Assembly: GCA_012295275.1 (NCBI GenBank)
Contig: CM022672.1
Location: 33,976,001-34,040,000 of the forward strand
Origin: Chrysomallon squamiferum
Taxonomy: Eukaryota > Animalia > Mollusca
DNA length: 64,000 nucleotides
Direction of reading: 5' to 3'
A program made the position numbers and the translations under genes. The notes below the pieces were generated by a model, which had not been told where the DNA came from, did not search any database, and worked only from the letters and a program-made list of their open reading frames with translations. Within the stretch, counting starts at the first letter, position 1; each line of letters begins with the position of its first letter. Positions 19,170-64,000 of this stretch are shown in pieces.

Positions 19170-19233
<64 letters not shown>

Positions 19234-22200: not shown

Positions 22201-24371
22201 ACACTTTCTTATAAGCCAATATGATTGGATGGCAGGTACTAGTTACAATGTATATTCTATTCTAACTGTAGTCTAATAAGGTTTTTTTCCTTATTATTTC
22301 CAGGACAGCCACTGTTGATAATCTGACTGATGTGGTTAGGTGAGTTTTTCACAGATATTACCAGTTAACGAATGTACAAGGACGTCTGCTTATGTTCTGT
22401 ACCTACAGCTTGGAAAATGTATGTCCTGCCACTGAACCTATTAAATGTAGGGACCTCAACATCAAAAATTATTTGAAATGAAAATCTGGAATTAAAACTG
22501 TTGGTTAGAATCTTTCAGAAAATACCAAAAGAAGCTTTAGCTGAACAGGAGTTTTGAAACATTTTTTTCAATTTTAAAATAAAAATAAATTCTAAAAGAT
22601 GATTGATTCAAGATGTGTTATCCTACGAGTGTCCAGTAAAGATAAATATCAGTGGTATTAGACAGTAATGGACATCTGTCCTTCACCTTGATTCCTGCAT
22701 CTCTTTGCGCTTCAGCTTCACCAATGCGTGCATCTCTCTTTACTTCTGCTGTCCTCTTCATTCCTAAAGCTTTCAAATATCCCTGTAAACACAGAAAATA
22801 TTCTTTTAAAATATTAATCCTCAATAAAATATTAAATTTAAATATCCCTGTAAACACTGTAAGTTATGATATACGTAAATATACCTGTAAATATTATTTT
22901 AAAAATGTTAATCCTCAATATCCCTGTAAACATACAAAATATTCTTTTAAAAATGTTAACCCTCAATATCCCTGTTACAGTAAAATGTAAATATCCCTGT
23001 AAACACAGAAAATATTCTTTTAAAAATGTTAACCCTCAATATTCCAGTAAAAGCAGTAAATTACAGAATATGTAAATATCCTTGTAACAGTAAAATTTAA
23101 ATATCCCCTGTAAACACAGAAAATATTCTTTTAAAAATATTAACCCTCAATATTCCAGTAAAAGCAGTAAGTTACAGTACATGTAAATATCCCTGTAACA
23201 GTAAAATTTAAATATCCCTGTAATTATAGAAAATATTGTTTTAAAATTATTAACCCTCAATATCCCTGTAATAGTAAAATTTAAATATCCCTGTAAACGC
23301 AAAAAATATTCTTTTAAAAATGTTAACCCTCAATATCCCTGTAAACGCAGTAAGTTATATATGTAAATATCCCTTTAACAGTAAAAATTGGAAATGTCCT
23401 TGTAAATATATAAATATCCATATACATGTATACAATAATGTAAGAAGATCTTCAATATTGTAAACACAGCAACATTAAAATACCCCTGTAAATATTAACA
23501 TCCTTGTAAACATAGTAACACTAAAATGTCTCTGTAAATCTAGTACCACTAAAACATCAGTAAAACAAAAATAATCTCTGTAAAGGTAGTAACAGTAAAA
23601 TCTCTTTGTAAACATATTAACATTAAATAAATAATTTCCGTAAATATATCTGATTTAAATTTCATGTGACAACAATGACAAGTATGTGTGTGTGAGCGAG
23701 TGTGTGTGTGTGTATATATATATATATTTAATGTGACAGAATATAACATCAGTGTTATACATACCTCTTCGTCTCTGACATCTTTCAGTGTGTAGCTAAC
23801 AACACAGATGCCCATGTTGACTAAGTCGGAGGATGCAACTTCAAACACAGCCTTGGAAAACTTCTTTCTGTCCTTGTAGATCTCCTACAACACACACAAC
23901 AACAACAAAAAAACATATTTAACAACCATATTTGTTCTGTGTCACCTGTCATAACTATTGTTTTCAAATCTCAGATGTTTCTCATTATCAAATCATCATA
24001 TATAGAGAGATGTGTAGTTTATATTTACACACACATTTGCCAATATTTGTACATGTGTGTGTGTGTGTGTGTGTGTGCACATAAATACAGAGAAATAGAT
24101 ATGCATATTTATCAAACACAATTGATATTTGTATTGTGTGTCATATATATATATCTGCCTATCTATCTATATTATTATCTATATCTGCATCTACCTATCT
24201 CTCTCTCTGTGTATTTATCACAAACACACAAACAAAAGTTGAAATAATGATTATACAGGTTAGAAGTGGAACATGGTATCTGTTCTTTGTGTAACTTGGA
24301 AACAGTTTTAATGGAAATGAACAAGAAAGCAAGAAGATGGAAAGATGAAATGTAGAAGTACTATCCAGAAA

Positions 24372-24404
<33 letters not shown>

Positions 24405-24905
24405 TATACAGATAGGTTTAACCTACATCATTAACTTTAACCTGCACATTAATCATTTTAACACACATATTATTAATTTTTACATACATGACATTTATTT
24501 GAAAGGCATAGATTTGTTTTTAAATTATTTACACAGTCAGAGGAGATTGTTTTTAATGTACCTCAACCGTCATGTTCCCCATAATTGCTCTCTGGTGACC
24601 TTCTAAAGTCTCCTGGGCCACAGAGCGAATTTCTCTTTCACTTTTGCCTAAGAAAAGTTCACATGCTGACCTAAGCATTTCCTGGTTTGACCCTTGAACT
24701 TTGACCTTATTAGCAAAAATCAAATCGTATTATTAATACATACATACATACATACATATTAATATTAAAAATACACTGATGTTATAATATACATTATTAT
24801 TTATATTAATAAAATATATATATCTAATATTCTGATAAATTACTTCATTATGGAGATAAAATTAATTATGAAAAAGTAAATTAATATGACAAGAAATAAT
24901 TAAAA

Positions 24906-24985
<80 letters not shown>

Positions 24986-27900
24986 ATTATATGTTGTTGC
25001 TTATAAGAAAGCCACATATAACCAAATAATCAATAACATGACTAATCACTGATACACAGTTGCGGATATTACAACACTGAACTGTAACAAGCTTTATACA
25101 TCAAATATAAATAGATTACACAAATATGCAGTGTTAAAACTAACCCTCTGTTTACCAGCCACCTGTCTATTAGCCATTTACTGTTACCCATCTTTTTGTT
25201 TTTAATTTTCATTTCTGACTTTCTGCACTAACTGATTCAGTAAGAGAGATACCATTGTGCCTTTCCAGTGTGTTTCATGTTTAGGTCTAAATGGGAATAC
25301 ACATTCCAATCTATCCATCCAAACACAAATATGTTTAAACTTACTTAGTCTTAGATATATCCGATTCATGTGGACATTGTAAATTTGTTATTTAAAAACA
25401 CGCATTTATTGTCTATATTTAACTGTAGTTTTACAAATGCTAAATCTTAACTGAAATTAATTATGCTATTGTTTTGACATATATATATATAGATATATAC
25501 AGGGTGAAAAATTCATGTTAATCTCCAAATTCGATTTGCTTGAACATAAAACATCCAAATCCATGTGGATTTGCATTAAATATTTCCAAAAATTTGATTA
25601 AATTGAATAATCAACGAGTAAAATGTAACTGAATTAAAAACAGAAACAGTCTCGTTATCAAAACATCAGTTTAAACTGGTTTCAAAAGCGTAGCATACAT
25701 TTGAATCTGTGTATGTTTGAAACATCATGGTTTATTGAGACTAGTCTTGCGAGAAGCCAAGTGCTGGTTGAACCAAATAGTCATTTAATGTGCCAAATTT
25801 GGTATTGTATCAGACATTTCTATGTCAGTTCATTGATATCATGTTTTCTAAATTAAATTTCCTGCTTATTTTGATCCATAAATTTGTTTTATTGGTTGCA
25901 GAAATTATAGTCCAATTACAAATAATTATTTTATTTACAGTGTTGAGCACATTCAATAAAAAGAAATGCCTAAAATAAAAACACATCTAATTACAGATAG
26001 TTCATTTTATTTCTTGTGCTGATCATATTAAATTAAAGAAAATTATATTTATATATATATCGTGGTACCTAGACTTGTGAGTTTAATTCGTTCTGTGACT
26101 GAGCTCATAACATAATTTGCATTAATCCGTTCCACCCCACCCACCCCCAGAAAATCACCCCATTTTTTTATATATTTTTTTAATAAATGACAAATATTGT
26201 ATAAAACAAAATAAAAGAGAATGTAAAGAAATAAATTGGTTTTTGTAAAGTGTATATATCATGGAGATCCAGACAAATGATTTTTACACCTTTGGCTGGA
26301 GTTAAAGCTTTAGTATGGTAGATATTATAGTACTGCGCTCATACTGCCTAGCCCAGTTGACTATATGCACACCTCACTCATGTTTTTCCATGATTTCATG
26401 GAAGTCATCTGTGTCTTCTTCTCTGCACTGTTCTTTGCATTCACTTTCTCAGAATCCAAGGTAAGAAAAAAGAAATTTGGCAGAACACAACAGAGATGCT
26501 TTCACAGCGAGGAAACAACGTGAAGTAAACATGTGAGACGAGGGATGCTGGCCGGATGTTATGTTGTTCATTGTGCCGATCAGTGTTGGTGTATCTCAAG
26601 CTTATTCATAACTCAGAAAACTCATAAGTCAAGGTACCATTGTATACATATATATATATATTAATTTGAATTACTTTAATCAGTTATTACTAATTTAGTC
26701 CCAGATTTGCATACTCAGATTTTTTTTAATGATATTCGTGAAATTATTAAAATTAAAATCAATTTGTGGTTATTTACTCTTTTTTTTTTTTTGACAAGTT
26801 GCGTAGATGTTTATCAGATGTTTGTTTTGTTTATTTACAAATAACCAGTGAGTTACTCACCTGAGCAATACCTGTAATGGCAATACCGACACCTAACTTT
26901 GTGTACACCTGGGGACTTTCAATGGTGAGAGTCATCGTATTGAGTGATAGCCTGAAAGAAAGCAGCATCACTCAAAACTGACGTCAGGTAAACTCAGGTA
27001 ACACAGGTGTAAAACAGGCAGATAATTAGAGTTTATGTTCATCTCTTGTTCTTTGAACCGTTGTAATATTAAATTTCTTTTCTCTCTCATGGGTTCTCAA
27101 CATTCTTTCATCGAGAAATGGAAAACATAATTTATAATAATACAAGATTCCTCGATTTTCTGAACTTCTTTCTACGCTTTGGAAATATTTAGGATTTTCA
27201 AATTATTTAGATTTTGAATTTTGAATTTTGAAATTTTCAGAGAATGAGTATAATAAGATAAATTTAGATTTCCGAATTCCTCAATCAGTATTAACAACCT
27301 TTATAGACAGGTGGCTGGTTTACAGTTACAGGTACTAATTTATTTATCTAAACATAAATTATTAATTAGATAAATAAAACTTTACAAAAACAGCTACTAA
27401 GACAGAACTCTAATTATATACATGTACAATTTTACACAAGTGTTATTCCCCATGCAACATTTTCAAAATGCCAAGCATCACTGACAAATATGGATCCCCA
27501 CTCAACAAAAGCAAAAAAAAAAAAAAACCACAAAAAATTTGAAAATGACAGATCAGAACTGGAAAATAAAAATAAATAAATAAATACGGATAAAATATCT
27601 ACATTAAGTAAATGTGTGAATCAAAGTAAATGTTTGTGTAATTTTATAAAACGTATTTTTTCTGTGTGTGTTTTAGTGATGCAAATGCATTTGCTTTTTT
27701 AATGATTAAGTATTTTAAGAGATTATATTCTTTTATATATATCTATATATATCTTTTTTTAACCTATAATCTGTAATGTTTAGTGATTTTTAAATTTATT
27801 TATTTTAAATTATTTTATTTGTTATTGTTTTTCACTCTGTTCTGATGTGATCTTTGCCAAACTTTTGGGGTGACAATTAAAACAAATGCGTATGTGTCAC

Positions 27901-28957
27901 ATCAAAGAAAACATTGTGCATGGCCTGCATGAGTGACTGAACCATGCAATGCCATGGGTGGGTGACTTACTTGTGCGATGCCAGTGACAGAAAGAGCCAC
28001 ACCCATCTGTGTGTATACATGAGGGATTTGTAATCTGAGGGTCATTAAGTTCAAGTTCAGTCTTTACAAAAAAACAAAAAGATTAATATGCACAGATTAG
28101 AGTTAAATTACTGTAAAAGTTAATCACAATATTTTTTTTTAGAGAGCCACGGACTTATGCATTTTACATGAAAAAAACATTTATATGTGTGTGCCTGTGT
28201 GTGTGTAAGGGGGACAAATAGTGGTATGTACAATGGATAAAATATTCTGAATGATCCAACCAGAAGCATATGAGCTATTAATTGTCACAATTTGTTTGGA
28301 AGTTGTAAAGAAAAGAAGCCATTAACTATGCAGAATGTGTCCTTATTTTCATTCTATGGGTTAGTCTTGGTAATAAAGGAACTTTCAATGGCCAAGCAGC
28401 ACATCTAACAGACATAATTTAACAGATTATATATATATATAAAGTTACAATAAAAGAAGTTGATAATTACCATAAAGATATAATGATTTCAGCAAGATTC
28501 TCATGACACAGATGACATTATTAGTTGTATTATCAATACGGTTATGGTTTCTCCTAAACTTATTTCAAACATTTGTACAATAATTTGTGTGTGTTTTAAG
28601 TAATTATTTTAAATACCTTGATGATCAATCTTTATTAACAATAAAATAATCCTAAGCTAATATTGTTTTATTTGTTTTCTATGTCATAATTAATCATTTT
28701 TCTATATTTTGTTATTTTTCCAGTTCTGGATGTGTCTCAAGGTTAAAGCTTGCTAACAGCTAAAAAGCAAAACATAAAATAAAGCTAGCATACATTGAAT
28801 ATGGAGTTGAGTAGGTTCACCATTACATAGACCCTGTGTACACCAACATTTTTTGTTTACAAACATATGAAACATGGTATGGACCATGTGAATAACAGTG
28901 TTATATATAGAGTAAATATGTTTGAGACCATTTGGTCATTTTCAGTATATATATATG

Positions 28958-29001
<44 letters not shown>

Positions 29002-31937
29002 AATATACAGATGAACAAAATGGCAGTATCTCAAAAATCTATCTACCTTTGAATTACCCTTAAAATTTCGTTCAAAACTCTCACTCTACACATACATACA
29101 TACGTAGACACACACACACACAAATTAGCCCCCCCTCAAAACCGTCATAAATTAAAAATCAAAACAGAACTTGAGTTTGGTCTTGTTTGTAAACAAAAGT
29201 TTGGTATATTCAGGGCATGAGTCTGTGATGCCCTGGCACAACTTACTTGTGCTATGCCTGTGACTGATACAGACACCCCATGTTTTGTGTAAACCTGGGG
29301 ACTCTCAATAGTTAGAGTCATAGTGTTCAACGTCATTCTTCACAAAAACAAAATAAATTAATTTAAAATAATAATAATTTAATTGAGAAATAAGAGAGAA
29401 AAAAAATTGATTTAATAAAATAATATATTGTTTGGCTTGTTAATTTAAGAGTAAATAATAAATATAATTAAAAAAAAACATTGTTTGGTTTATTAACTAA
29501 GATTAAATAAGAAATAACTTGGCTTATAAACAACTGTATTTTCAAATAAAAAAAATTAAATTAAAAAACATTTGTCTTGCTTTATATTTTTTGAAAAGCT
29601 ATTTGGCTTATTGAAGAATAATAACAAAACCACTAGGCTTATAAGTTACAAACAAATCTATTTTCAATAAAACAAATTAAAAAAATTTGAAGGAAAAAGA
29701 AAATTAATAGTTAAATAACTGGTCTTATAAAAACATCTATTTCCATTAAACTATTATAATAAAAATAAATTAATTTAAAAAATAAATAAAATATAGGGTT
29801 ATTAAATAAGAAATAACTTATAAACAATTCTATTTAAATAATCAAATATGTTGTATTTTGGTATATGTGTTTATATCCACTATAATTTACAGAGCTGTCA
29901 ATGTTTAAAATATTTCCAAATAAACCACACACACACTGTGTGTGTGTTATGTATGTATGTATCATTGTACGTATGTATATATGTTAATCTTATGTCATGG
30001 AACATTTTATTTTCTACAGCACTTATAATCATTTGGTACTAGTTAAGTCTGTATGTTTGTTTCTAATTAATATACTGTTTATTATATACATATATATTTT
30101 TATTTCTATGTTTTTTTAATTATGTCTCTTGATAACAGCTAATCATTACAACGATAATGAACTAATTATTAACTAAAATGTGTTCACCTCGTTAGTGTTA
30201 ACCTGTGTGCTTACATCTCACTTGTATAACGAATGTATTATTAATGTTAATTAATGTTCTTACCTTTGAAGCCGTTGAATACCTGGCCAAACGAAAACAC
30301 GCCCCCCAGGTATAAAAACCGACTGACCATGACAACACCCTGAAAAACAATAGATGGTAATGAACAGCTGGAGTCTAGTGATTAAAACAGTGGCTAACAC
30401 TGTGTCAGCTATTTTATATTTATTTCATACACACACAGAGAAGATTTAAAATAATAATAATAATTAAAAAAATAATATAAAATAAACAAACAATGATGGC
30501 TGTTTATTTCCTATTCCAAATTTTTTTTAAAAAGAAAGGCTTTGGTAATATCATTTATACAGTTAATTGCTGCTTGTTAATCAGCATCTTTGTTTTATAT
30601 AAAAAATACCAGAACATTTCTATCAATTTTCTAAAAAGAATTTTGGAAAACAACATGATTATAAACACTTGAATTAAACCCACCGGAGGTAAAAATTACA
30701 TACAACTCGTTTGTTTTGTGCCATGGTTTGATAATTTATTTATTTATAACACAAGGTATGATAACTGTTTTGTGGGCATTTCATTTCATGTCATTGTTTT
30801 CCATGTAAAATACACAGAGCCCCTTACATGGGTTCTATTTTCACTAGGAATGAATGCTACTTAGAATTAACTTAAGTTACTTTGTTTCATTATGAAATAT
30901 TACCGAGTATTTTCTGTTTCTGACATTCTGTATAGAGTATGGAAATGAACCATGATTTTTATTTATCTTTCCCCACATTTATTATTAAAATTATTTTTGT
31001 TGCTGTGTGGCTGTTCTTTTTGTCATGATTATAAATATAGAAAAACATTAAGAGTTTACTTCAAAGGAAACGTTTTCATATATATTCGTTTAATTATTCA
31101 TCTGATTTATTTTATTATGAGTTTTGCAATATTTTATATAACATCACATGCTGCCATTGATAAAGTTATAGTGTAATGATCATAATGCAATGGTGCTTTA
31201 ATAAAATGAGTGGAAAAAAAGAAAGCAAACCGCACAATCCCAACAATATTTATATAAACAGTTTTATATTTGTAAATTGTAATTTGTATTAAAATTTAAA
31301 TTCTATTTAATACCTTTGTTAGATCAATACCATTAGCATCTAATTTGTAACTATGTTATACATTGTAGAACAACATCAATACATCAAAGTAATAAATATT
31401 TATTATTGCGCAATATTAAATTATAACTGGAGTTGGTACATTTCGCAATATGTCAAATGTATTACGCAAAAATTATAAACATACCGATTGAAAAAAAAAA
31501 ATATGATAATAACTTGTATTATTAACTAAATACCACCCTGAAAAACATGTAAATATATGATCGAAATTTTTAATAAAGGTTTTTTTTTTTTTTTTAACAT
31601 GAACTGATGAAATGTAAATAAACATTTCTTAAATATCTTTCGACGTATTTTTTTTTTTCATTGTGAATGCTGTCTTAAAATATGCAGGGAATAACGATTA
31701 TTTAGTAAATAAAGCGATGAAAATAAAAATGTAATTATTGCATTCACAACAAAACCACTGTGTTTGACATTACCAGGCGTATCTAATTGATCGCGAGGCT
31801 GATACAATTCAAGGCCATTCATCGTTACGAACCGAGAAACGAAATCGGCCATTAATATCCACAACCGTACGTGCATAAAATGTATACAGACCTGACACGA
31901 CCATTACTTCATTCGGTCCACACGTTTCAAAGCCCAT
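17231..31937 (-). CDS. FLOT1: Flotillin-1 (SPFH/band-7 family), 12 coding exons, 428 aa
   Basis: Exons 31892-31937, 30264-30339, one of [29247-29337 / 27971-28061 / 26861-26951], 24562-24705, 23765-23884, 22687-22782, 21809-21961, 20883-21064, 20468-20513, 19819-19956, 18957-19121, 17231-17260. All are GT-AG and phase-consistent, totalling 1287 nt. Motifs [43 protein letters not shown] and [10 protein letters not shown] match FLOT1. Confidence 0.96.
17383..18970 (-). repeat. ~45-bp minisatellite (about 35 copies) built from the exon-11 donor (ATTAACATCATCAGA|GTGAGTAG), filling most of the last flotillin intron
   Basis: The + strand core CTACTCACTCT recurs every 44-46 bp; the unit nearest the exon overlaps the last five codons (INIIR). 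Confidence 0.95.
18957..19121 (-). CDS. FLOT1: Flotillin-1 exon 11 (VAAEISAPL...LTGINIIR)
   Basis: CAG acceptor, AGA|GTGAGT donor; matches the FLOT1 C-terminus. Confidence 0.92.
19819..19956 (-). CDS. FLOT1: Flotillin-1 exon 10 ([25 protein letters not shown]...LETLPK)
   Basis: GT-AG bounded, 138 nt. Confidence 0.95.
20468..20513 (-). CDS. FLOT1: Flotillin-1 exon 9 ([15 protein letters not shown])
   Basis: GT-AG bounded, 46 nt, phase 2 to 0. Confidence 0.92.
20685..20882. repeat. Degenerate repeat (GATTTATGTCTCACTAACAAACTAAC) abutting the exon-8 donor
   Basis: Repeated ACTAAC (GTTAGT on the gene strand, the same hexamer as the real donor). Confidence 0.7.
20883..21064 (-). CDS. FLOT1: Flotillin-1 exon 8 ([15 protein letters not shown]...[17 protein letters not shown])
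   Basis: GT-AG bounded, 182 nt; absent from the supplied ORF track. Confidence 0.95.
21809..21961 (-). CDS. FLOT1: Flotillin-1 exon 7 ([11 protein letters not shown]...[10 protein letters not shown])
   Basis: GT-AG bounded, 153 nt. Confidence 0.95.
22687..22782 (-). CDS. FLOT1: Flotillin-1 exon 6 ([32 protein letters not shown])
   Basis: GT-AG bounded, 96 nt. Confidence 0.95.
22775..23540 (-). repeat. Compound minisatellite containing about 12 copies of the exon-6 acceptor (TTACAG|GGATATT)
   Basis: The + strand motif AATATCCCTGTAA recurs near 22776, 22841, 22917, 22967, 22990, 23100, 23187, 23211, 23259, 23284 and 23332, decaying distally. Confidence 0.9.
23765..23884 (-). CDS. FLOT1: Flotillin-1 exon 5 ([40 protein letters not shown])
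   Basis: GT-AG bounded, 120 nt. Confidence 0.95.
24562..24705 (-). CDS. FLOT1: Flotillin-1 exon 4 ([11 protein letters not shown]...[17 protein letters not shown])
   Basis: GT-AG bounded, 144 nt. Confidence 0.95.
26061..26642. mobile_element. Non-autonomous Tc1/mariner-superfamily (pogo/Tigger-like) MITE, about 580 bp
   Basis: Imperfect TIRs GTGGTACCTAGACTTGTGAGTTT and AAACTCATAAGTCAAGGTACCAT, flanked by TA runs; resembles CAGTGGTACCT-type TIRs; no transposase ORF. Confidence 0.65.
26861..26951 (-). CDS. FLOT1: Flotillin-1 mutually exclusive exon 3c ([30 protein letters not shown])
   Basis: 91 nt, CTTTCAG acceptor, CAG|GTGAGT donor, phase 2 to 0, no stops. Confidence 0.92.
27971..28061 (-). 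CDS. FLOT1: Flotillin-1 mutually exclusive exon 3b ([30 protein letters not shown])
   Basis: 91 nt, poly-T plus GTAAAG acceptor, CAA|GTAAGT donor, phase 2 to 0, no stops. Confidence 0.88.
29247..29337 (-). CDS. FLOT1: Flotillin-1 mutually exclusive exon 3a ([30 protein letters not shown])
   Basis: 91 nt, T-rich plus GTGAAG acceptor, CAA|GTAAGT donor, phase 2 to 0, no stops. Confidence 0.9.
30264..30339 (-). CDS. FLOT1: Flotillin-1 exon 2 ([26 protein letters not shown])
   Basis: GT-AG bounded, 76 nt; GGRVFV motif. Confidence 0.95.
31892..31937 (-). CDS. FLOT1: Flotillin-1 exon 1 coding part ([15 protein letters not shown])
   Basis: ATG at 31937 in an AAAATGG context; G|GTCTGT donor. Confidence 0.93.
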
Positions 31938-31989
31938 TTTGGCTTCTTTTTTTAAACGAAATAAGAAATACTCTCGTTATCAAACCATG

Positions 31990-32984: not shown

Positions 32985-33949
32985 TTCTTTATTATTATTT
33001 TCATAACATTTTTATTTTTTTATTTTTTTATTGTTTATATTTTTTTGTGTGAAAATAATACAAGATATGGAAAAACATCCAACAAGACCAAAGACGAAAC
33101 AAGTGACATCTTGAATAGCTTGGTGACATACTGAATATTGGTTTAAAAGTGGTTTTAATTTTTAGTTTACATGAAATTAATAACAATTATCCTTAATAAT
33201 CTAAATAAAAAAAAATTAAAAATAAAATAAAGATGAAAATACTTCAACAAATGAAGATATTCTAACAAAAAAGAGGGCTCAAACGAATATAACTGATATC
33301 TTGGTGACCTATTCGAACTGCAGTTAAAAACTGATTGTAATTTTTAGTTGACTGATATAATAATAATAATAACAGTATCATATTAAGCATATTAATATTG
33401 CACTGGTCTAACAACTATTTTATAGAAGATAAAAGAACGCCCCCCCCAACAACATAGAGCTTACACATTGAAACCTTCACTTGATTCATCTGTCGAGTTT
33501 TGGAATAGAAAATAAAAAAATTAAAATTTTTAAAATAAAAAGATTAAAATAAAGGTCAAAGACGGCGTGAAAGGTCATCTTTGATAGTTTGGTGACATAC
33601 TGGAATACAGGCCAAAAACTGATATTTATGTGCCAGCCGCACATGAGGAAAATGCAAATTCATTGATAGAAATAAAAGCTTAAAAAGTTGGCTTTCATTT
33701 AAAAGATCCAACGTGTAGCGGAAATGAAAGTCTGTGCCCAACTAAAGAAACAGGAAAATCTTAAATGGGGAAATGCCCCCCCCCCTCCAAAAAAAAACAA
33801 CAAAAAAAAAAAATTAAAAAAAAAAAAATAAAATAGAAGTGACATATAACAATCCCATATAACAGTAATTGGTGTTGGTACAATTGGCAGATCAGGATTA
33901 ACTGTGTGGATGCAATGACAGAAATGTCCCATTTCTTTCTGGTACAGTG

Positions 33950-34560
33950 CTCATTTTTTCCGAGAGCCATGGGAATGAAAACAACCAGTGGAAAAGAAAA
34001 TGCCATTTTTCCAAAGAAGATTTCAAAGAAGAAACAAGCAGCACTGTCAGCTGCTGAAGACGTTTGATCAGTTCCGTCGAAGAAGCTCGTCTGTTAATTG
34101 AAGCAAAGACGAGAGCCGGAAAAGAATGAAGCAAGTTCAGAGGTGGCTCTCCTTCGAGAACATTAGTTCCGATGAAGAGACGAAAAAGATGATGGCCCTG
34201 CCCTTGAAAAAAAAAAAAAAAAGACGTCGTAAAAATAGTGCCACCGAGAAATTTAAAAATGAAGAGAGATGAACTGAACAGATCTTGTTGTTTCTGTTGG
34301 AAGAAAATAGAAACGAACAAGCTAAACCATTTTGACGCAGTATTACGAGGTCGGGACCTCAGTGTTCCAAGCATTGTGCGAACGACAGTGCGGAGAAACT
34401 GTTCACATCCGCACATCGAATGTTCCAGGCAGAACAAGACAAGAAAACGGCTTTCGAATTAGTTCAGGAACTTCTGGATCACTTGAACCATTACCTGAGT
34501 CCTCACCACTCTCTTGGAACAGGACAGAAAACCCAAGTTCCTGTACAGCCTGATGACAAA
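33950..34560 (+). pseudogene. Decayed coding-like segment, probably a transposon remnant
   Basis: Higher-complexity, GC-richer stretch giving overlapping broken ORF pieces in different frames and ending at an A-run; no family recognised. Confidence 0.3.
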
Positions 34561-36336
34561 AAAAAAAAAAAAAAAAAAAAAAATTGGTGGGAGAAGAAAT
34601 CAAGACTGACATTATAAAATTAGACAAATCAAAGACCTCCTGACCGGAAGTTGTGAACAGAAGTGTACCACTCCCAGTTTACTGCAAAGCCAACTTCTGC
34701 TTCTTGAATAGCAAGACTATAATTTCAGCAGAAAAAATAATTTTGGTTTGACATGTTTTGATTTTTTTTTTTTTTGTTTTTTACTGAACAGGATAGGAAT
34801 GTAAAACAAACTGTTCATGCAATAAACTGAAATTATATAAACTTAAATAAAAACAAAACAATCACTGCAGTTCTCAGTTTCATCAGTAACATGCTTTTAA
34901 TTAGATAATATTTCTTTCATTACTGTTTATATGAAATAGCTGAAATATATATTTTGTTGATATTCTTATCATTATTATCAGTCTATCATAAATGCAGATG
35001 CAGAACTGTAACATTTGAATCCGTATCACAAGGAATAATAAATATAAATAACTGAAATAGGACTGATAGGAATGTCATTTTTAAGCTGTTGTTAAAAGGT
35101 TTTTACAGCAATTATCAAGGTGATGCAAATAGCTGTGTATGTGGAAATGCAAGATCACTTCACATGTATTATCTTTTCTCATGTAAATTATGCACACAAT
35201 AATGGGATAAAAATAATTTTGGTAATCAAGATGTTTGTGTTTAGGGTGGCTTTATGACACCTTCCCTGGCACGGAGTTCACTCCCTTTAATCCTGTTACT
35301 CTCAAACCACATCATTTTTAATCTGTAATGCAGGTACAGTCAAATATATAATCAACAATATTCTGCGACTTTCTTGCTTTTGGTGAAATGGTGAATAGCT
35401 CGTACCTGCAGTTTCTTCACCTGTTCTTAGTACTGCAGTATATACCCTTTTTATTTATTTATTTATTTTTTTTCAAAATGAATTTATTATTGTAATATGC
35501 ATCTTTAAAATGAGTTATTCTGTTTAATCTATGTTTCAAAGGCCTACATACGAGTCTAAAATCTTAAACAAATCTTTGAAGGATTTAAATCGAAACAGAT
35601 GAAAATATATGAAATTCTGTCTGTATCGGTGAGCTCAGAGTCAGGTTAATGTGACTAATTTGATACCACAAAAGTATTGGACTGATCTAAAATATCTGCT
35701 TATTTACTTTATATGTTCCTTTTCACACCCAATTCACCGTAATGAAATCTACAGTAAAAGTTTATACTTTTGTTAAGGGATAACCAAAACCTAATATAAA
35801 AAAAAAAAAAAAAAAATTCTAACAAAAATATGACTCAGTATTTTGTAGTAGTTAGAATATACAACAAATCCAGTATGATTATACTTGATATTGCTGGAAT
35901 AGATATCACATGCTAGGGATATTCTGATTTGATGCTGCAATACAGACTATATAACTGGACATAGCACTTGAGTAGATACCAGTATGCTTAATACTTAAAG
36001 TATACACACACCCGCAAAGTCTGAATATACTTAATACTGCTGCAATGGACATATCCTTGAAGTAGATACTTCATTCATTGAGTAGATGCTATTCAACTGG
36101 AGTAGACACCAAATGCTTGGAGTAGAGATCATATAATAGCGTTATTCTTATTTGATATTGCAATGCAGATCATATGATTGGACACTACTATATTATTTGA
36201 TTACAAGTGGCGAGAACATCAGTGCAATTGGAAGCAGAACTCATTTTGTTACTAAAACAGAGGGCAGAAAATCATGGATGTCGAACTCCATAAATAAATT
36301 ACATTAACATTTCAAAGACGGTTCACCTACACAATG

Positions 36337-38226: not shown

Positions 38227-39336
38227 AATAGATAAATAAAAAATAAATATCTATAAATTAAAACTAAGTAAATAAATAATCTGAACAAAATTGTAAATTC
38301 TGTTCACTTTACTATTCTGTAAATTTAAATAAATGTAACGAATGGATGTTTACACAAATTTAAGAACTTTTTTCTGAAGTAGAAGATACTTCTAAAACAT
38401 TATTTCATTCTTTCTTTCTTTTATTTTCTTTGACCAGACATATCAGAAAAACGTATTAATTTTATTTCGTGTGTTTTTTTTCCCTAACGATTATAATAAA
38501 AACACTACGGGCACTGCATAAGTCATTTTGATAACCTTAAACTACTGAAGTGATTTTGACACGTGACGTCACAAGCTATTTTTGTATGCTGACATTTAAC
38601 TTGAAGACAGTTTTATTACCAATGTACTTTACAAGTTAAAACATAATATTTAGTTAAATAAATAGTAAAATTGTAAAAAATAGAATGTATGTGTACATCC
38701 TTTGATTAATAAGTTATCTTTCGTTTTAAATTTATTATTGATGCTATTTTATTATTGATAATTAATTTTTAAAGACTAGATCGTCTGACCCAAATCATGA
38801 AAAACTAGACTTGAACCGCGTTACTTGCCAGTTCAGTTAATTACTAGTAGATATCAATTTAATTAATAACGCTCTGTTTAGTGAATTTAATAAAATAAAG
38901 ATCGAAAGAATATAACCCATGAAGGAAAAATAAAGAAAACGTGTTTGTCTTGTTATTATTTATTTATTTTACTTTTTTTAAATTTGATGTTCGTAGTGGT
39001 TTCTAGGAATTTCGATTTGAAATCCATGACTCTCCAAATTAATTTTTACTTACCATTTAAATTATTAAATACCTAGATCAGTTTTTCACTGAATGGAAGG
39101 TTTTTTTTTTTTTTTTTTTTTTTACCGTTTGAAGTACTTCAAGTCGTACCACTAACCTGTCTCCCATTTTCGCTTGACTGCGTCTCGCTCAAAGCGAGGT
39201 CGGCGCCATATTTGTATTTTGTCGCAGTTGATATCTTTCCCAGTCGTGAAATGTAATTAATGATAAGAAGTCGTCAAAAACCAACACAGCTCGCTCAAGT
39301 TAAGAAAGCTGTATATTAATCAAATATGGTTAACGG

Positions 39337-39385
<49 letters not shown>

Positions 39386-39504
39386 CACAAAGAACTGGTC
39401 CGTATTTTTTTTATGCCTTTTTATCTGTTTTCCTCCTATCTAAAATAGCACGTTATACACACTTGTAAATTAAACTGTATACAGAATCGTGTACGGACAT
39501 GTCT

Positions 39505-39543
39505 GGGTTTTTCCAGTCGGGGTTTTTCGAGTCTGGGCTTTCC
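39505..39543 (+). promoter_or_regulatory. Three tandem kB-like (Rel/NF-kB) sites upstream of caspase copy 1
   Basis: GGGTTTTTCC, GGGGTTTTTC and GGGCTTTCC at about 15-bp spacing, about 300 bp before the ATG. Confidence 0.6.
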
Positions 39544-39840
39544 AGTCTGTTTTACCTTCGTCAAGTAAACATTACAATTCAGTCAAACCCAACCTGGCAG
39601 AGTGACAAGTACACACAGCAAACATTTAGAACAGTAAGAATATTACTTTACTGTATATATGTGTTTTGCCTCTCGGTTAACCGTCAAATAATTATTGATG
39701 AGCGCTTCAAGAAGGTGAAATATTAAATTGTTTTCGAGAAGGAGATTAATTGTTTCCTGTATTCTATTCTGTATCGACTATTAAAAATAAATAAATAATA
39801 AATAAAATAAAATAAAAACTAGCAAGAAAGAAGAGGAAAT

Positions 39841-41472
39841 ATGTCTAAAAGATGCAACACGATCGTTGATGGATTGAAAAATTTTCATTGTTTGATAGAA
39901 TTTGTTTTGTGGCTATTTTCGTGCATGTATTTTCTGATTGGTATTGCAGAACATTACTACAATGTCAGTACACCATATTATGACATTGGTACGGCTATTA
40001 TATTGAGAGGTTTCGCTTGTGCAGCGGGATTTACACGGGACGGATTATATAACAAATATGTCTTTGTGTCGTATGTCACCCTTTATGTTGCCTCTGTGTT
40101 GTTTGAAATGTTCCGAGCAATAGTAAGACAAACTCTTCTTTTGCAAGACGAATCTCTCTGTTTGAGTCTTCCAACATACTGGGTTCTCGTTGTTTTCTAT
40201 CATCTTCTCACAAACAACAAGATCACGACGTTTCTACTCAGCGATGAGACAATTGAATATATGTTGTTAAATTTTATCCTATCCAACTGTGAAGAACAGC
40301 AGAAACAGCGAGCTACACCCGTTTATTAGTATCCTGTGGCTCTGTTGTATGAAACTGGTTTTGGGCGGTTCTCCATGGACACTAAAATATACGTAATATA
40401 CATAATTATCATCACTCAATTCTTATATGAATTTAGTCTTAATTACTGCTTGTGGATATATTTTAAATGTGAATTCAGTTTGTACTTTGGACGAAGGTCT
40501 AAATTATGCCCTTTTGAACAAAGTGAGAAACTGTCAAATGAATCTAAGTCTGATACACAAACGAGAATTTAAAAAGTCAAACGGAAACATATCAAAACTT
40601 GCACACTGATTTCCACCAGAAGGATTCATCTTTTGTTTTTGCAGTCGAAACAATGGAAAGTCAGATCATTTCTTTCAAAAAATGTGATAAATCGTAGTTT
40701 ATCTGTTGGAGACGCAAACAGTGAGCGTTTTCAAGAGGTTGGACTCAGTAACCTGACTGAGAATGAGACAGACATGTACAAAATGGACGCCAGACCCAAA
40801 GGAATTTGTGTGATCATCAACAACCGAGATTTTACTGATGAACGACTAAGTCGACGCGATGGCACAGACGAAGATAAAAACAAAGTGGAAGACTTTTTCA
40901 GACGACGTCATTTTGAAGTGAGAATCTTTGAAAACCAGACCGATTCGGATATGCTGGAAGAACTAAAACAAATATCTTCTCTGGATCATCGTAGCTACGA
41001 CTGTTTCGTCTGCTTCATACTTTCACATGGAGAGCACGGGTCAGTGTATGGAAGTAATGGCAAGCTTGTGTCAGTAGACGAAATAGAAACTTTTTTCTGC
41101 CCCAGACAGTGTCGCTCTTTAGCCAAGAAAGCAAAACTATTTTTCGTTCAAGCTTGCCAGGGAAGTCGACCGGCGCAAGGCGTTGCTGTGGAAATAGATC
41201 ACGGATACTGCTGTGACGTCAGAGCAGAATATCCTGTTCACGAGTCGGCGGACATTCTGACGATTTTCGCTACGACTCCTGGAAACCTCGCCTACAGACA
41301 GACGACAGGATCTCGTTTTATTTCTACACTGATTGAAGTACTCGACAACAATCCTCGAGTCAGTCTTCTCGATATAATCACCATGGTGACAAAGAAAATG
41401 GATGAAGTTACTGATCCGAAACAAATTCCTATACTGAAGTCGACTCTCCGGAAACAAATTATTTTAAACTAG
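39841..41472 (+). pseudogene. Transmembrane-caspase copy 1: two in-frame nonsense codons in the N-terminal region, catalytic domain intact
   Basis: Collinear with 44323-45963. TAG at 40327 (TCG in copy 2), TAA at 40570 (AAA in copy 2), a 9-nt in-frame deletion and no frameshift. SHG and QACQG are retained. Possible internal start ATG at 40774. Confidence 0.8.
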
Positions 41473-41575
41473 ATATTTCTTTTTACATCTGATTTCCTGA
41501 AAAAGACGTTTGAAAATAAGTTACTTTTATACAACCATGTTTTAAAAAAGAAAAAAAAAAAGAAAAAAGAAAACA

Positions 41576-41610
<35 letters not shown>

Positions 41611-43985
41611 AAAAGAAAAGGAAGCACAAAATGTTTGTCTTCTTCGATTATAAAATGAATACTGTAACAATGTGGATCAAGAGAACATAGAACTGTATTT
41701 TAGTTATGAAGTGAAGCTTCGCATGATATTGAAAACAAAACAATACAACACTTACTATAATTAGTAACATATTTCATGAACTGGAAGGAGTGACGAACAG
41801 ACAAACGTTTTTATTTTTATTTATTTAATATTTAGCGTGTTATTATTACAGATAAGTATTTAAAAATCTAAATTAGAGAGCTAGTAAAAATATGATAGTG
41901 ATGGCTAAATATAATAACACATACACACACACACACACAGATATATATATATATATATATATATGTGATTAAAATAATTGATTGCGATGTTAAGATATCA
42001 AGTTTGATGCGAGATGTTTATTTTAACATCTTTTCTCACCTGCGAAGGTCTAAATGGCCGATTGCAACGAGATTCGGTGTAAATTATAACTTGATAGAAA
42101 AAGAAAGATCTGGAAAAGAGATAGTTGAATATTCATAATTTTAATAATCCCTGAAAATCGTTATGACTGGGTTTAGTAGATAACATTTTTGTGTAACGAA
42201 CACAGATTTTTGTCTGTCTGAATATCTTATTTTCTCATTTTCCGATAAGAGATAATACCCGAAACCACAAAATAATAAGTAAAAAATGTATATATGTATA
42301 TATCATTACTATTGTTACTTTTATTAATTAATTAATTAATTTGTTTGTTTATTAACTTGTGGCTTTGTGACAATTTAAAAATAGTGAAGAAAATAAATTT
42401 AAGTTTACTAATTATTAATTTTCATGTTAACGATTTATTTACATTCTTTTAGTATTTTTATGTTTATAAATTTACTAACACACGCAGATACATACACACA
42501 TACATGTTATATGCATGTATATAGGTTTGTTTTTCTGTATATGAACGAAAAACAAATATATATATATATATATGTAGCAGACTTTGACAGTAAGGCACGT
42601 CTGAACGACATTGTCTAGTAAACGGCTAGTTCGGTCTAATCATATCTGTTTCTAAGTAGCCCGACTGGTCGTGTTAATAATGTATGAAATGTGAATTAGT
42701 TTGCTATCAGTGATCCTACAGACATTACTTCATTCTATTTTTATTGATCAGCGGATAGACTGTCACTGAACAGTTTGGTCTAGTTGATACTAAACTTTCT
42801 ATTATCTGATCATTGTTCTGATATCAGCTTTATTTATCAGCTGGGTCAGGCGTAGCTTGGTTACCAGGCTCGGGGCGAGGCAACTGTACTGCGCTCCCCT
42901 CCCCCGTGGAAATTAGCCACCCTCGACCCACTTGCACATATTATTTCATTCTTTCTTTCTTTATTTTCTTCCGAACGATTATAATAAAAACACTATGGGC
43001 ACTGCACAAGTCATTTTGATAACCTTAAACTACTGAAGTGATTTTGACACGTGACGTCACAAGCTAGTTTTGGATGCTGACATTTAACTTGAAGACAGTT
43101 TTATTACCAATGTACTTTACAAGTTAAAACATAATATTTAGTTAAATAAATAGCAAATATTGTAAAAAATAGAATGTATGTGTACATCCTTTGATTAATA
43201 AGTTATCTTTCGTTTTAAATTATTATTGATGCAATTTTATTATTAAAAATTAATTTTTAAAGAATATATTGTCTGACCCAAATCATGAAAAACTAGACTT
43301 GAACCGCGTTACTTGCCAGTTCAGTTAATTACTAGTAGATATCAATTTAATTAACAACGCTCTGTTTAGTGAATTTAATTAAATAAAAATCGAAAGAATA
43401 TAACCCATGAAGGAAAAATAAAGAAAACGTGTTTGTGTTGTTATTATTATTATTATTATTATTATTTTTTTTACACTTCATGTTCGTAGAGGTTTCTAGG
43501 AATTTCGATTTGAAATCCATGACTCTCCAAACTAATTTTTACTTACCATTTAAATTATTAAATACCTAGATCAGTTTTTCACTGAATGGAAGGGTTTTTA
43601 TTTTGTTTTTTTTTTTTTTTTACCGTTTGAAGTACTTCAAGTCGTACCACTAACCAGTCTCCCATTTTCCCTTGACTGCGTCTCGCTCAAAGCGAGGTCG
43701 GCGCCATATTTGTATTTTGTCGCAGTTGATATCTTTCCCAGTCGTGAAATGTAATTAATGATAAGAAGTCGTCAAAAACCAACACAGCTCGCTCAAGTTA
43801 AGAAAGCTGTATATTAATCAAATATGGTTAACGGTTAACACACACACACATCGCAAAGAACTGGTCCATAGTTTTTTAATGACTTTTTATCTGTTTTCCT
43901 CCTGTTTGTTTTTTTTGAATCGAAAATAGCACGTGATACACACTTGTAAATTAAACTGTATACAGAATCGTGTACGGACATGTCT

Positions 43986-44025
43986 GGGTTTTTCCAGTCC
44001 GGGTTTTTCGAGTCTGGGTTTTTCT
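43986..44025 (+). promoter_or_regulatory. Three tandem kB-like sites upstream of caspase copy 2
   Basis: GGGTTTTTCC, GGGTTTTTCG and GGGTTTTTCT at 15-bp spacing. Confidence 0.55.
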
Positions 44026-44322
44026 GTCTGTTTTACCTTCGTCAAGTAAACATTACAGTTCAGTCATACCCAACCTGGCAGAGTGAAAAGTACACACAAC
44101 AAAGATTTACTACAGTAAGAATATTCCTTAACTGTATGTATGTGTTTTGCCTCTCGGTTAACCGTCAAATAATTATTGATCAGCACTTCAAGAAGGTGAA
44201 CAATTAAATCTAACTTCGAAAAGGAGATTAATTGTTTCCTGTATTCTATTCTGTATCGACTATTAAAAATAAATAAATAATAAATAAAATAAAATAAAAA
44301 CTAGAAAGAAAGAAGAGGAAAT

Positions 44323-45963
44323 ATGTATAAAAGATGCAACACGATCGTTGATGAATTTGAACATTCTCAATGTTTTAACAAATTTGTTTTGTGGCTATTT
44401 TCTTGCATGTATTTTCTGATTGGTATTGCAGAACATTACTACAATGTCAGTACACCATATTGTGACATTGGTACGGCTATTATATTGATAGGTTTCGCTT
44501 GTGTAGCGGGATTTACACGGAATGGATTATATAACAAACATGTCTTTGCGTCGTATGTCACCCTTTCAATTGAAGCTCTGTTGTTTGAAATGTACCGAAC
44601 AATAGCAAGACAAACTCTTCTTTTGGAAGACGAATCTTTCTGTTTGAGTACTACAACATACTGGGTGCTCGTTGTTTTCTATCATCTTCTCAGAAAGTAC
44701 AAAATAGCGACGTTTCTACTCAGCTATGGGACAATTAAATATACGTTGTTAAATTTTATCCAATTCAGCTGTGAAGAACAGCAGAAACAGCCAACTACAC
44801 CTGTTTATTCGTATCCTGAGGCACTGTCGCATGAAACTGTTTTTGAGCGGTTCCTTCTGGACACTAAAATATACGTAATATACACCATTATCATCATTCA
44901 GTTGTTATGTGCATTTAGACTTAATTACTTCTTGTGGATACATTTTAAATGTGAACTCAGGTGGTACTTTGGACGAAGATCTAAATCATGCCCTTTTGAA
45001 CAAAGTGAGAAACAAACAAATGAATCTAAGTCTGATACACAAACGATAATTAAAAAAGTCAAACGTAAACATATCAAAACTAACACAGCGATTTCCACCA
45101 GAAAGATTCTTTGTTTGTTTTTGCAGTCGAAGCAATGGAAAGTCAGATCATTTCATTCAAAACATGTGATAAATCGTCTAGTTCGTTGTTTGTCTGTTGG
45201 AGACGCAAACAGTGAACGTTTTCAAGAGGCTAGACTGAGTAACCTGACTGAGAATGAGACAGACGTGTACAAAATGGACGCCAGACCCAAAGGAATTTGT
45301 GTGATCATCAACAACCGAGATTTTACTGATGAACGACTAAGTCGACGCGATGGCACAGACGAAGATAAAAACAAAGTGGAAGACTTTTTCAGACGACGTC
45401 ATTTTGAAGTGAGAATCTTTGAAAACCAGACGGATTCGGATATGCTGGAAGAACTAAAACGAATATCTTCTCTGGATCATCGAAACTATGACTGTTTTGT
45501 CTGCTTCATACTTTCACATGGACAGCACGGGTCAGTTTATGGAAGTAATGGCAAGCTTGTGTCAACAGAAGAAATACAGAGTTTTTTCTGCCCCAGACAG
45601 TGTCGCTCTTTAGCCAACAAACCAAAACTATTTTTCGTTCAAGCTTGCCAGGGAAATCGACCGGCGCAAAGCGTTGCTGTGGAAATAGATCACGGATACT
45701 GTTGTGACGTCAGAGCAGAATATCCTGTTCACGAGTCGGCGGACTTTCTGACGGTTTTCGCTACGACTCCTGGAAACCTCGCCTACAGACAGACGACAGG
45801 ATCTCATTTTATTTCTACACTGATTGAAGTACTCGACAACAATCCTCGAGTCAGTCTTCTCGATATAATCACCAAAGTGACAAAGAAAATGGATGAAGTT
45901 ACTGATCCGAAACAAATTCCTATATTGAAGTCGACTCTCCGGAAACAAATTATTTTAAACTAG
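44323..45963 (+). CDS. Intronless caspase (peptidase C14, caspase-8/3-like catalytic domain) with a multi-pass hydrophobic N-terminus, 546 aa
   Basis: YKMDARPKGICVIINN, RDGTDED, CFILSHG (catalytic His), KPKLFFVQACQG (catalytic Cys), ADFL..FATTPG and GSHFI motifs. Residues about 20-207 contain 5-6 hydrophobic segments. No DED/CARD recognisable. Confidence 0.92.
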   Translation: MYKRCNTIVDEFEHSQCFNKFVLWLFSCMYFLIGIAEHYYNVSTPYCDIGTAIILIGFACVAGFTRNGLYNKHVFASYVTLSIEALLFEMYRTIARQTLLLEDESFCLSTTTYWVLVVFYHLLRKYKIATFLLSYGTIKYTLLNFIQFSCEEQQKQPTTPVYSYPEALSHETVFERFLLDTKIYVIYTIIIIQLLCAFRLNYFLWIHFKCELRWYFGRRSKSCPFEQSEKQTNESKSDTQTIIKKVKRKHIKTNTAISTRKILCLFLQSKQWKVRSFHSKHVINRLVRCLSVGDANSERFQEARLSNLTENETDVYKMDARPKGICVIINNRDFTDERLSRRDGTDEDKNKVEDFFRRRHFEVRIFENQTDSDMLEELKRISSLDHRNYDCFVCFILSHGQHGSVYGSNGKLVSTEEIQSFFCPRQCRSLANKPKLFFVQACQGNRPAQSVAVEIDHGYCCDVRAEYPVHESADFLTVFATTPGNLAYRQTTGSHFISTLIEVLDNNPRVSLLDIITKVTKKMDEVTDPKQIPILKSTLRKQIILN

Positions 45964-47634
45964 ATTTTTTTTATTTCAGGTGATTTCCTGAAAAAGTTCG
46001 TTTGAAAATAAAGTTACTTTTGCATAAACATGTTTTCAAAAAAAAAAAAAAAAAAAAAATGAAAAAGAAAAATGTTTGTCTTCTTCGACTAAAATGAATA
46101 CTGTATCATTTTGTATCATTTTGGATCTACATAGAACTGTGTTTTAGTTACGAACTGAAACTTCGCATGATGTTGAAATAAAAAAAAACAAAAAAAACAA
46201 ACACTTACGATAATTACTAACATATTTCATGAACTGGAAGGAGTGATGAACAGACAAACGTTTTTATTTTTATTTATTTAATTCAATTTAATTAATTAAT
46301 TTATTTATTTAGCGTCTTATTATTACAAGTAAGTATTCAAAAAATCTAAATTAGATAGTTGGTAAAAATATGATAGTGATGACTAAATATAATGACATAT
46401 AATGATATATATATATATATATATATATAGTTGTAATTAAAACAATTGATTGTGATGTTAATCCGATCTTAAGTTTAATCCGTTATTTTTATTTTAACAT
46501 CTTTTCTCACCTGCGAAGGTGGAAATGGCCGATTGCAAAGAGTTCGGTGTAAATTATAACTTGATAGAAAAAGAAAGATCTGGAAAAGAGATAGTTGAAT
46601 ATTCATAATTTTAATAATCCCTGAAAATCGTTATGACTGGGTTTAGTAGAAAACATTTTTGTGTAAAGAACACAGATTTTTGTCTGTCTGAATATCTTAT
46701 TTTCTCGTTTTCCGATAAGACATCATGCCCAAAACAACAAAGTAATAAATAAGAAATGTATATATAACATTATTATTGTTATTTTTGTTAATTAATTAAT
46801 TAATATTTTTGTTTATTTACTTGTGGCTTTGTGACAATTTAAAAAATAGAGAAGAAAATAAATTTAAGTTTACAATTTATTAATTTTTCATGTTAACGAT
46901 TTATTTACATTCTTTTAGTATTTTTATGTTCATAACAATTTACTAACGTTATATTCCTTTAGTATTTTTATGTTCATAAATTTACTAACACACGCAGGTA
47001 CATACACACATACATATATATATTACATGCATATATATAGGTTTGTTTTTCTCTATCTGAACGAAAAACAAATATATATATGCACACATTAAATATCGAC
47101 ATTACCTATCAGTACAGAACAGTTTTATTAAATATATATATATATATATATCTATATGCACATCAAATATCGATATTACCTATCAGTACAGAACAGTTTT
47201 AGTAATTATCCTTCCATGTACAGACACACACACATACATACACACTCACACACTAAACACACACCTGGATTTTAAAATTAGGTTTATCAATATATAAATA
47301 TATACTTTAAACTTTCTGTTGTCTGTTTACTGTGCTGACGTCAGCTTTATTTATCAGCTGGGTCAGACGTAGCGTTGGTTACCAGGCTCGGGGCGAGGCT
47401 ACTGTACTGCGCCCCCCTTCCCCGTGGAAATTACCCACCCTCGACCTACTTCCACTAATTCATTGTCGCATCATTAACATTATCTTTTATTATAATAACT
47501 TGTAAAAGTATTTAAGAAAAATTAACAGTTCATTTTACAACGACAATATTAACATTATACTTAGTAATAATAGATGTGAATGTTTTAAAATTAAAGTACT
47601 GGTTATAAAAAAATATTATTATTAGTTAATTTAA

Positions 47635-51994: not shown

Positions 51995-52282
51995 ACATTT
52001 AAATTGACAAATAAAAAATAAAACAATCTTGCTGCTTAGAATATGATTACGTACTCCTTAAATAACAAAATAAGTATTTACTTTACTGAATATTTAACGT
52101 ATAATGTTATATTACATATTCAGTTATACTGTACAATTATAAACAGACACTAAGAGATCATATACTGTACAGAATAGATGAAATAGCACTAATTTAATCA
52201 GTCTATGTCATAAAATCTAAAAACGTTTCACAACATTCTCAATGTTCTAAAATCATTCTTCTCTTTACTGATAATACAAATA

Positions 52283-63995
<11,713 letters not shown>

Positions 63996-64000
63996 CTGAA

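Follow-up and report, generated by a model that had tools for sequence, protein, structure and literature searches.

In animals, initiator caspases normally reach membranes by way of death-fold adaptors, and the locus described here raises the question of whether a caspase can instead be built into a membrane protein. The locus lies in a stretch of 64,000 nucleotides (nt) of the Chrysomallon squamiferum genome (Mollusca; assembly GCA_012295275.1, contig CM022672.1, positions 33,976,001 to 34,040,000, forward strand), hereafter the window, in which one of two tandem gene copies, copy B, encodes a predicted protein of 546 residues (P0001) with a hydrophobic N-terminal domain, a basic linker and a C-terminal caspase (Table 1). 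With high confidence, a membrane-type domain and a caspase stand here in one frame, and this architecture is conserved and apparently undescribed. The function that we favour, with slightly better than even confidence, is that of a membrane-embedded zymogen whose cytosolic caspase-8-type domain would be activated by clustering, without a death-fold adaptor.

A hydrophobic domain and a caspase in one frame

The frame of copy B runs from stop to stop over 44305-45963, with its first ATG at 44323 and 546 codons without interruption, as described in a first-pass annotation of the same DNA. Its view that the openness upstream of the caspase is not due to chance also held: when the bases of the 313 pre-caspase codons were shuffled 20,000 times, the stretch was never open (at most 226 codons in a row), each of the five other reading frames over it carries 10-33 stops, and the longest open reading frame in the AT-rich and microsatellite-rich window besides both caspase copies has 223 codons and is largely low-complexity.

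Real support for a single-chain multi-pass membrane caspase comes from two distant homologues, because the N-terminal domain is conserved in both and fused in frame to the protease. P0002 (758 aa) and P0003 (923 aa), gene calls from ENA contigs 49 and 186 kb long, were the two best of 77 matches to the whole protein (78 proteins with P0001), and both have the same in-frame fusion. Their caspases are 67% identical to that of P0001. In the N-terminal domain 72 of 233 residues (31%) are identical between P0001 and P0002 (E 3e-31), with a local alignment score of 258 against a mean of 35 and a maximum of 64 in 1000 shuffles. Positions Y78, E89, R92, R96, D103, E104, Y113 and W114 are invariant, and C5 and C223 are conserved. 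Judged on this comparative evidence, the N-terminal residues of P0001 (about 225) are coding and fused in frame to the caspase.

Searched with phmmer, the first 250 residues gave a single match among 1.84 billion cluster representatives, namely P0002 (E 1.4e-20). Profile searches of 5316 longer candidates returned P0002 and P0003 only, and 1650 candidates of 89-412 aa held no stand-alone relative of the domain, so that within the databases searched it appears only fused to this caspase. No Pfam family matched the N-terminal part, including the death-fold and transposon families that the first-pass annotation had considered as possible identities, and no PDB sequence matched at E<=10. The best scores in the ESM Atlas (0.75 and 0.77) belonged to unnamed entries and lay under the lead threshold. 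The structure prediction that had been proposed earlier was run with AlphaFold2 on alignments of 4 and 5 rows and gave two all-helical models with a predicted local distance difference test (pLDDT) of 40.1 and 40.8; with models of this low confidence, the Foldseek search (nothing at E<=0.001) and the VIA structure search (best Z 8.2, root-mean-square deviation 7.7) carry no weight. Metagenome contigs yielded two ordinary caspases only, one of them with a long non-membrane prodomain, and none of the 63 pattern matches to the N-terminal part in viral contigs was confirmed. A new membrane domain can be defined, which has no match in Pfam, PDB or the cluster representatives beyond this family.

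The caspase is covered by Pfam Peptidase_C14 (PF00656) at residues 323-542 (E 4.6e-52; 177 bits, cut-off 21.4) along positions 1-231 of the 233 of the profile, and catalytic His399 (SHG, 398-400; codon 45517-45519) and Cys442 (QACQG, 440-444; codon 45646-45648) are in place, which agrees with the complete C14 domain annotated previously. The RDGT, SHG, QACQG and AYR motifs align with the same motifs of mollusc and vertebrate homologues, and the Arg/Gln/Arg pocket for the substrate Asp is present in the alignment. Among PDB entries 141 solved sequences match at E<=1e-20, caspase-3 scoring slightly above caspase-8 (137 vs 130 bits). The nearest named caspases are molluscan, with 42-44% identity (caspase-8-like proteins of Potamilus, Gigantopelta and Haliotis), and the nearest named matches are mostly caspase-8 or -10. 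With its catalytic and pocket residues in place, the protease of P0001 looks intact, and QACQG makes a caspase-8 type likely. It shares QACQG, SHG, the pocket and an acidic inter-subunit site with the caspase-8/10 initiators (MEROPS C14A), and differs from them in its long branch and in the tandem death effector domain (DED) prodomain, which was not found: residues 1-228 have no Pfam family at E<=10, and C14 is the sole family of the whole chain at E<=1. The candidate inter-subunit site was located by alignment of VEIDHG with IETDSG of caspase-3, and its Asp-His-Gly is retained in P0002 and P0003.

In quick trees, a single clade on a long branch (SH-aLRT 100) unites the caspase domains of P0001, P0002, P0003 and copy A. 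The sister group of this clade differs between the two trees, being P0005 in one and P0026/P0033 in the other, and in the second tree, which took in 29 of 72 rows, a grouping of the clade with ten mollusc-type matches was not rejected (p-AU 0.44). Precomputed Pfam accessions list other caspase fusions among the matches, in P0004 (PF01661), P0010 (PF04548), P0014 (PF01477) and P0075 (kinase); caspase domains are often shuffled in these invertebrates.

The two halves are joined by the linker, in which the basic stretches RRSK and KKVKRK reported earlier were both found. The linker of P0001 cannot be aligned with those of P0002 and P0003, yet the frame is open in all three proteins, as expected if a single chain is needed. 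In P0002 and P0003 it is an array of a 20-residue Ala/Thr/Pro/Val-rich repeat whose unit number differs between them, and the caspase is spaced 290-450 residues from the membrane domain, vs about 85 in P0001; the length of the tether would therefore be free.

Table 1. Features of the caspase locus and its neighbours (window positions)
Feature	Position	Strand	Observation
Copy B gene for P0001 (546 aa), with membrane domain, basic linker and caspase	44323..45963	+	single intact frame
N-terminal unnamed hydrophobic domain, residues 1-228	44323..45006	+	31% identity to P0002 domain over 233 aa
Predicted membrane segment 1 (~20-38)	44380..44436	+	strong in copies A and B and in P0002/P0003
Predicted membrane segment 2 (~48-66)	44464..44520	+	hydropathy; Arg within it in copy A
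Marginal segment 3 (~74-92)	44542..44598	+	hydropathy; invariant Tyr78, Glu89
Marginal hydrophobic segment (107-124)	44641..44694	+	invariant Tyr113, Trp114; span or surface helix
Last predicted membrane segment (~183-203)	44869..44931	+	polar Gln193; Glu nearby in P0002/P0003; then conserved FGRR..CP
Basic linker	45007..45261	+	open in frame in P0001, P0002 and P0003; sequence not conserved
Caspase C14 domain	45289..45948	+	Pfam Peptidase_C14 (PF00656), residue alignments
Candidate inter-subunit cut site VEID	45679-45690	+	alignment with caspase-3
Tandem copy A	39841..41472	+	stops 40327-40329 and 40570-40572; 9-nt in-frame deletion; caspase frame intact
Tandem duplication, ~4.5 kb (38475-42479 vs 42964-46947)	38475..46947	.	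85-92% identical; carries both copies
Flotillin-like gene	~18900-31980	-	intron-rich; label presumed
Receptor tyrosine phosphatase-like gene	~52000-64000	-	Cys-rich EGF/DSL-like repeats

Tandem copies and RNA-library contigs

The first-pass annotation refers to both copies and does not mention that the fusion is intact in copy B alone: copy A is broken by stops at codons 163 and 244, both ahead of the caspase, and is either a pseudogene of the fusion or the source of a short soluble caspase. Its caspase frame has its own Met (DMYKMD), and an RNA-library contig of run X1 (described below) resembles copy A upstream. Its product might be a soluble caspase of short length, or a regulator acting dominantly on copy B.

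Comparison of the copies revealed that the membrane part changes faster than the protease. Copies A and B differ at 75 of 648 nt in the membrane part. The corresponding count for the caspase is 26 of 702 nt (p 4e-8) and for upstream non-coding DNA 23 of 343 nt, again less than in the membrane part (p 0.014). Between P0002 and P0003, 17 of 228 residues differ in the membrane part vs 4 of 237 in the caspase (p 0.003), giving the membrane domain about 3-4 times the divergence of the caspase in both lineages. The ratio of non-synonymous to synonymous substitution rates (dN/dS) between copies A and B is 1.39 in the membrane part, 0.64 in the linker and 0.57 in the caspase. The pattern would fit a diversifying sensor and is ambiguous, since the value of 1.39 does not exceed 1 significantly (p 0.39) and one of the two copies compared is interrupted by stops. 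A caspase stretch of 166 nt is identical between the copies (45266-45431 in copy B, 40775-40940 in copy A), and in run X2 a 167-nt piece at 45304-45469 is collapsed to a depth of 315; from these two observations gene conversion is likely to homogenise the protease across paralogues.

The coding part of copy B has no intron, in contrast to the neighbouring genes. A retro-copy origin is likely for this reason: a retro-copied caspase-8-like domain would have been captured behind a membrane-protein frame, with tandem amplification following. In Mytilus coruscus just 1 of 47 caspases is intronless, according to the available text of that survey (PMC10967218). It could be argued that everything at the locus belongs to a family of retro-copies in decay, in which copy B is open through youth alone, as copy A is broken, the caspase dN/dS between the copies is 0.57 and run X2 contains many diverged copies. 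We give this very little credence: the conservation of 31% and 67% to P0002/P0003, with the catalytic residues intact, requires purifying selection over a long time, and under neutrality of both copies the 100 pre-caspase substitutions should have brought about 5.6 stops, whereas copy B has none.

Four sequencing runs (X1-X4) were compared over 43630-46030, the kind of run X2 not being on record. An X1 RNA-library contig (record 3, 593 nt) is colinear on 44970-45571 and reaches unspliced across the AG at 45126, of which it covers 156 nt on the upstream and 445 nt on the downstream side, from codon 216 to past His399. It represents a third copy, with 27 differing letters and the 9-nt deletion, copy A-like first and copy B-like later. 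Further RNA-library contigs lie over membrane-coding DNA at 44418-44666 (X4), 44797-44880 and 44851-44942 (both X1); cover is missing on 43630-44417 and from X3, where it is no evidence either way. Run X2 gave 101 contigs, with single-contig depths of 25-41 and loose ends that read as more diverged in-frame paralogues, so that the family may comprise some ten copies, although depth is no copy number. One X2 contig joins 44229 to 45265 and may come from a paralogue that lacks the membrane part; such a paralogue would tell how the fusion came about or disappeared.

These contigs bear on the possibility, raised already by the first-pass annotation, that transcripts splice in at about 45126 and leave the hydrophobic region out. 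The main product would then be a short soluble caspase, from transcripts spliced or begun downstream (at AG 45126, or at the start codon in YKMDARPKG), next to a separate or vestigial hydrophobic frame. A good polypyrimidine-AG stands in frame at 45126, the caspase frame of copy A is kept despite two upstream stops, and the 44229-45265 joint has the corresponding form. The colinear crossing of 45126 in the contig of the paralogue speaks against obligatory splicing there. Furthermore, the frame is open from the membrane domain through the unconserved linker in three proteins, the membrane domain lacks a stand-alone relative among the 1650 shorter candidates, and the stop pattern of copy A also fits neutral decay, with about one caspase stop expected from the 26 changes. 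A soluble main product is accordingly highly unlikely.

Predicted topology and proposed mode of activation

Membrane spans were predicted from hydropathy (Kyte-Doolittle, KD, threshold 1.6). In P0001 the segments 17-35, 47-65 and 183-201 reach at least this value (KD 1.68-1.89) and are hydrophobic in P0002 and P0003 too, and the segments 73-91, 105-123 and 128-146 score 1.07-1.34. Two or more segments of KD>=1.6 occur in 3 of the 78 proteins only, namely P0001, P0002 and P0003. In either lineage, segments 74-92 and 107-124 reach marginal values only, and the sixth helix of the first-pass annotation was rejected, as segment 128-145 is not hydrophobic in P0002 (mean 0.12). The five to six hydrophobic segments announced earlier are thereby reduced to four or five, three of them strong and one or two marginal.

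Flanking charges point to an orientation with both ends inside. The N-tail of P0002 ahead of segment 1 has 6 K/R vs 2 D/E, the 25 residues past the last segment of P0001 have 6 K/R vs 3 D/E, and the GRR motif there is common to P0002 and P0003. Because the charges favour both ends inside, the number of spans would plausibly be even, most simply four. The cytosolic protease proposed in the first-pass annotation is plausible on these grounds, and its glycosylation argument falls away: the NVS sequon was indeed found at residue 41 in both window copies, within a loop of 9 residues, and is missing from the loop of P0002/P0003, so that it gives no support for topology. Under the four-span model, P0001 and P0002 each have a loop of 88 residues, and the other predicted outer loops are short.

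A mode of activation can be proposed from this arrangement. The hydrophobic domain would insert into the membrane with about four spans and leave both ends in the cytosol. Initiator caspases are monomeric zymogens activated by dimerisation, and clustering of the membrane domains in the plane of the membrane could dimerise P0001; that FADD- or Apaf-type adaptors are dispensable for such clustering activation is a reasonable inference. Dimerisation would be followed by self-cutting between the subunits at VEID456 and next by cutting of executioner caspases or other substrates. The membrane part would stand in for the death receptor, FADD and DED chain, and its fast change might supply specificity for a pathogen, damage or cell-contact cue.

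Several observations weigh against activation of a membrane-embedded zymogen by clustering. Just three segments are strongly hydrophobic and four spans are indistinguishable from five, which would place the protease outside the cytosol. The N-tail of P0001 is not positive (2 K/R, 3 D/E). A large recognisable ectodomain was not found, with segment 1 beginning at residue 20 and the N-terminal part having no Pfam match. P0002 and P0003 are known as gene calls, at the protein level, only. Relaxed selection or gene conversion of the caspase accounts for the divergence pattern equally well. No membrane segment is connected to the caspase in any of the RNA-library contigs: the one that bridges 45126 begins right past the last segment, belongs to a different paralogue and might represent DNA in the RNA library. 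The X2 joint from 44229 to 45265 skips the membrane part.

The lack of a known sensor domain, the shortness of the predicted outer loops apart from the 88-residue stretch and the possibility that fast divergence means relaxed constraint (dN/dS not above 1) may also be read as signs of a plain anchor in the endoplasmic reticulum, a vesicle or the cell surface. Activation would then fall to an upstream protease or a separate receptor, and VEID, in the position of IETD of caspase-3, is a site type that an upstream caspase can cut. One helix would do for an anchor, yet the 31% identity extends over about 225 residues, among them polar and aromatic positions that do not vary; moreover, QACQG and most of the top matches are of the initiator caspase-8 type. 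We therefore regard a mere anchor as unlikely.

The conserved polar residues in and near the spans, the amphipathic helices and the all-helical form of both low-confidence models might alternatively suit a killing pore or channel, freed when the attached caspase cuts the linker, in other words an effector resembling gasdermin or NINJ1 held in the same chain. P0001 has an Asp right before the caspase (ETD, 312-314), which is not at the same place in P0002 and P0003. Gasdermin, ninjurin and other pore-formers were unmatched in Pfam or in PDB sequences, and a multi-pass protein is already inserted in the membrane, unlike gasdermins. This makes a pore decidedly improbable.

Clustering of a membrane-embedded initiator thus remains the preferred reading, and a tentative extension of it, which we consider doubtful, concerns the family as a whole. 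The proteins might be lineage-restricted, multi-copy immune or self/non-self receptors, in which a diversifying, tetraspanin-like four-pass sensor with paralogue-specific triggers is combined with a built-in, homogenised protease from a retro-copied caspase-8. Each would amount to a death receptor made of a single protein. If the fast-changing membrane part does set the trigger, it would represent an unrecognised arm of invertebrate immunity.

Known parallels and neighbouring sequence

The first-pass annotation implied that a caspase in a membrane protein is without precedent. This has to be corrected in one respect, as the available text on amphioxus describes a predicted transmembrane tumour necrosis factor receptor (TNFR)-caspase with cDNA support and proposes it as a shortcut from signal to death (PMC2575513). 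According to that text, the TNFR-caspase (JGI model Brafl1_82667) and a leucine-rich repeat (LRR)-caspase combine in one chain, as P0001 is predicted to do, a membrane part and a caspase on the inner side with an intact QACXG; they too are proposed to bypass adaptors and occur at several loci. The likeness is one of architecture: the amphioxus TNFR-caspase is single-pass and has a known outer TNFR ectodomain (PMC2575513), and P0001 has an unnamed, predicted multi-pass domain and one coding frame. Neither a TNFR nor an LRR ectodomain was found in P0001, whose N-terminal part is without Pfam match and whose segment 1 starts at residue 20. The new element appears to be the multi-pass unnamed domain fused to a caspase. 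As a natural multi-pass membrane caspase, P0001 would be a second independent wiring of a membrane cue to proteolytic death, after the single-pass amphioxus TNFR-caspase.

In the accessible parts of the bivalve surveys, caspases carry CARD, DED, DSRM, FN3, PB1 or no prodomains, and no membrane spans are given (PMC7836458, PMC10967218); the accessible parts of the Acropora survey mention transmembrane regions for Bcl-2 proteins only (PMC4715348). A multi-pass animal caspase was not found in the literature covered, where the phrase 'transmembrane caspase' had no match; this coverage ended short of subscription papers and supplements such as the amphioxus and bivalve tables.

Inspected by eye against the general motifs of the family, P0001 recalls tetraspanins under the four-span model in its short N-tail, three close segments, 88-residue loop, polar residues in segments 3 and 4 and inner cysteines (C5, C223). 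Tetraspanin hallmarks include a large outer loop that contains CCG and has 4-8 conserved cysteines (PMC7589920, accessible text). P0001 and P0002 have no adjacent cysteines in their first 240 residues and share no loop cysteines. Membership was rejected, as CCG and conserved loop cysteines are missing and no Pfam, PDB or Atlas match was obtained; a decayed tetraspanin origin is suggestive by eye. A tetraspanin motif scan of viral contigs gave five chance matches, four of them in short open stretches, and no tetraspanin.

Bacterial membrane metacaspases and caspase-like receptors also tie a caspase-fold protease to membrane helices, some with outer sensor domains (PMC3501461; HetF, PMC8406250), as far as the accessible text goes. 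The same source counts predicted helices in 104 of 671 prokaryotic metacaspases (PMC3501461), and auto-peptidase sensor systems have been proposed in bacteria (PMC8195603, accessible text). P0001 differs in being a true animal p20/p10 caspase with an unrelated membrane domain and a lineage-restricted fusion; the resemblance is convergence, not descent.

Two other genes and some repeats surround the caspase pair. The gene which we take by eye to be flotillin-like, with two single exons that had no Pfam match, lies head to head with the pair, its start about 7 kb upstream. On the other side, the receptor tyrosine phosphatase-like gene has weak Y_phosphatase and DSL matches and belongs to a type often linked to immunity in molluscs. 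The region 33900-34700 is GC-richer, with broken open frames and long A runs, and four pieces of it had no Pfam match; it is possibly a mobile-element remnant. Units of 45-46 bp are arrayed at 17367-18972 in 29.7 and 13.2 copies; the arrays begin as a repeat of the end of a flotillin-like exon with a GT donor-like site, and constitute a minisatellite grown from an exon-intron boundary, with many repeated donors.

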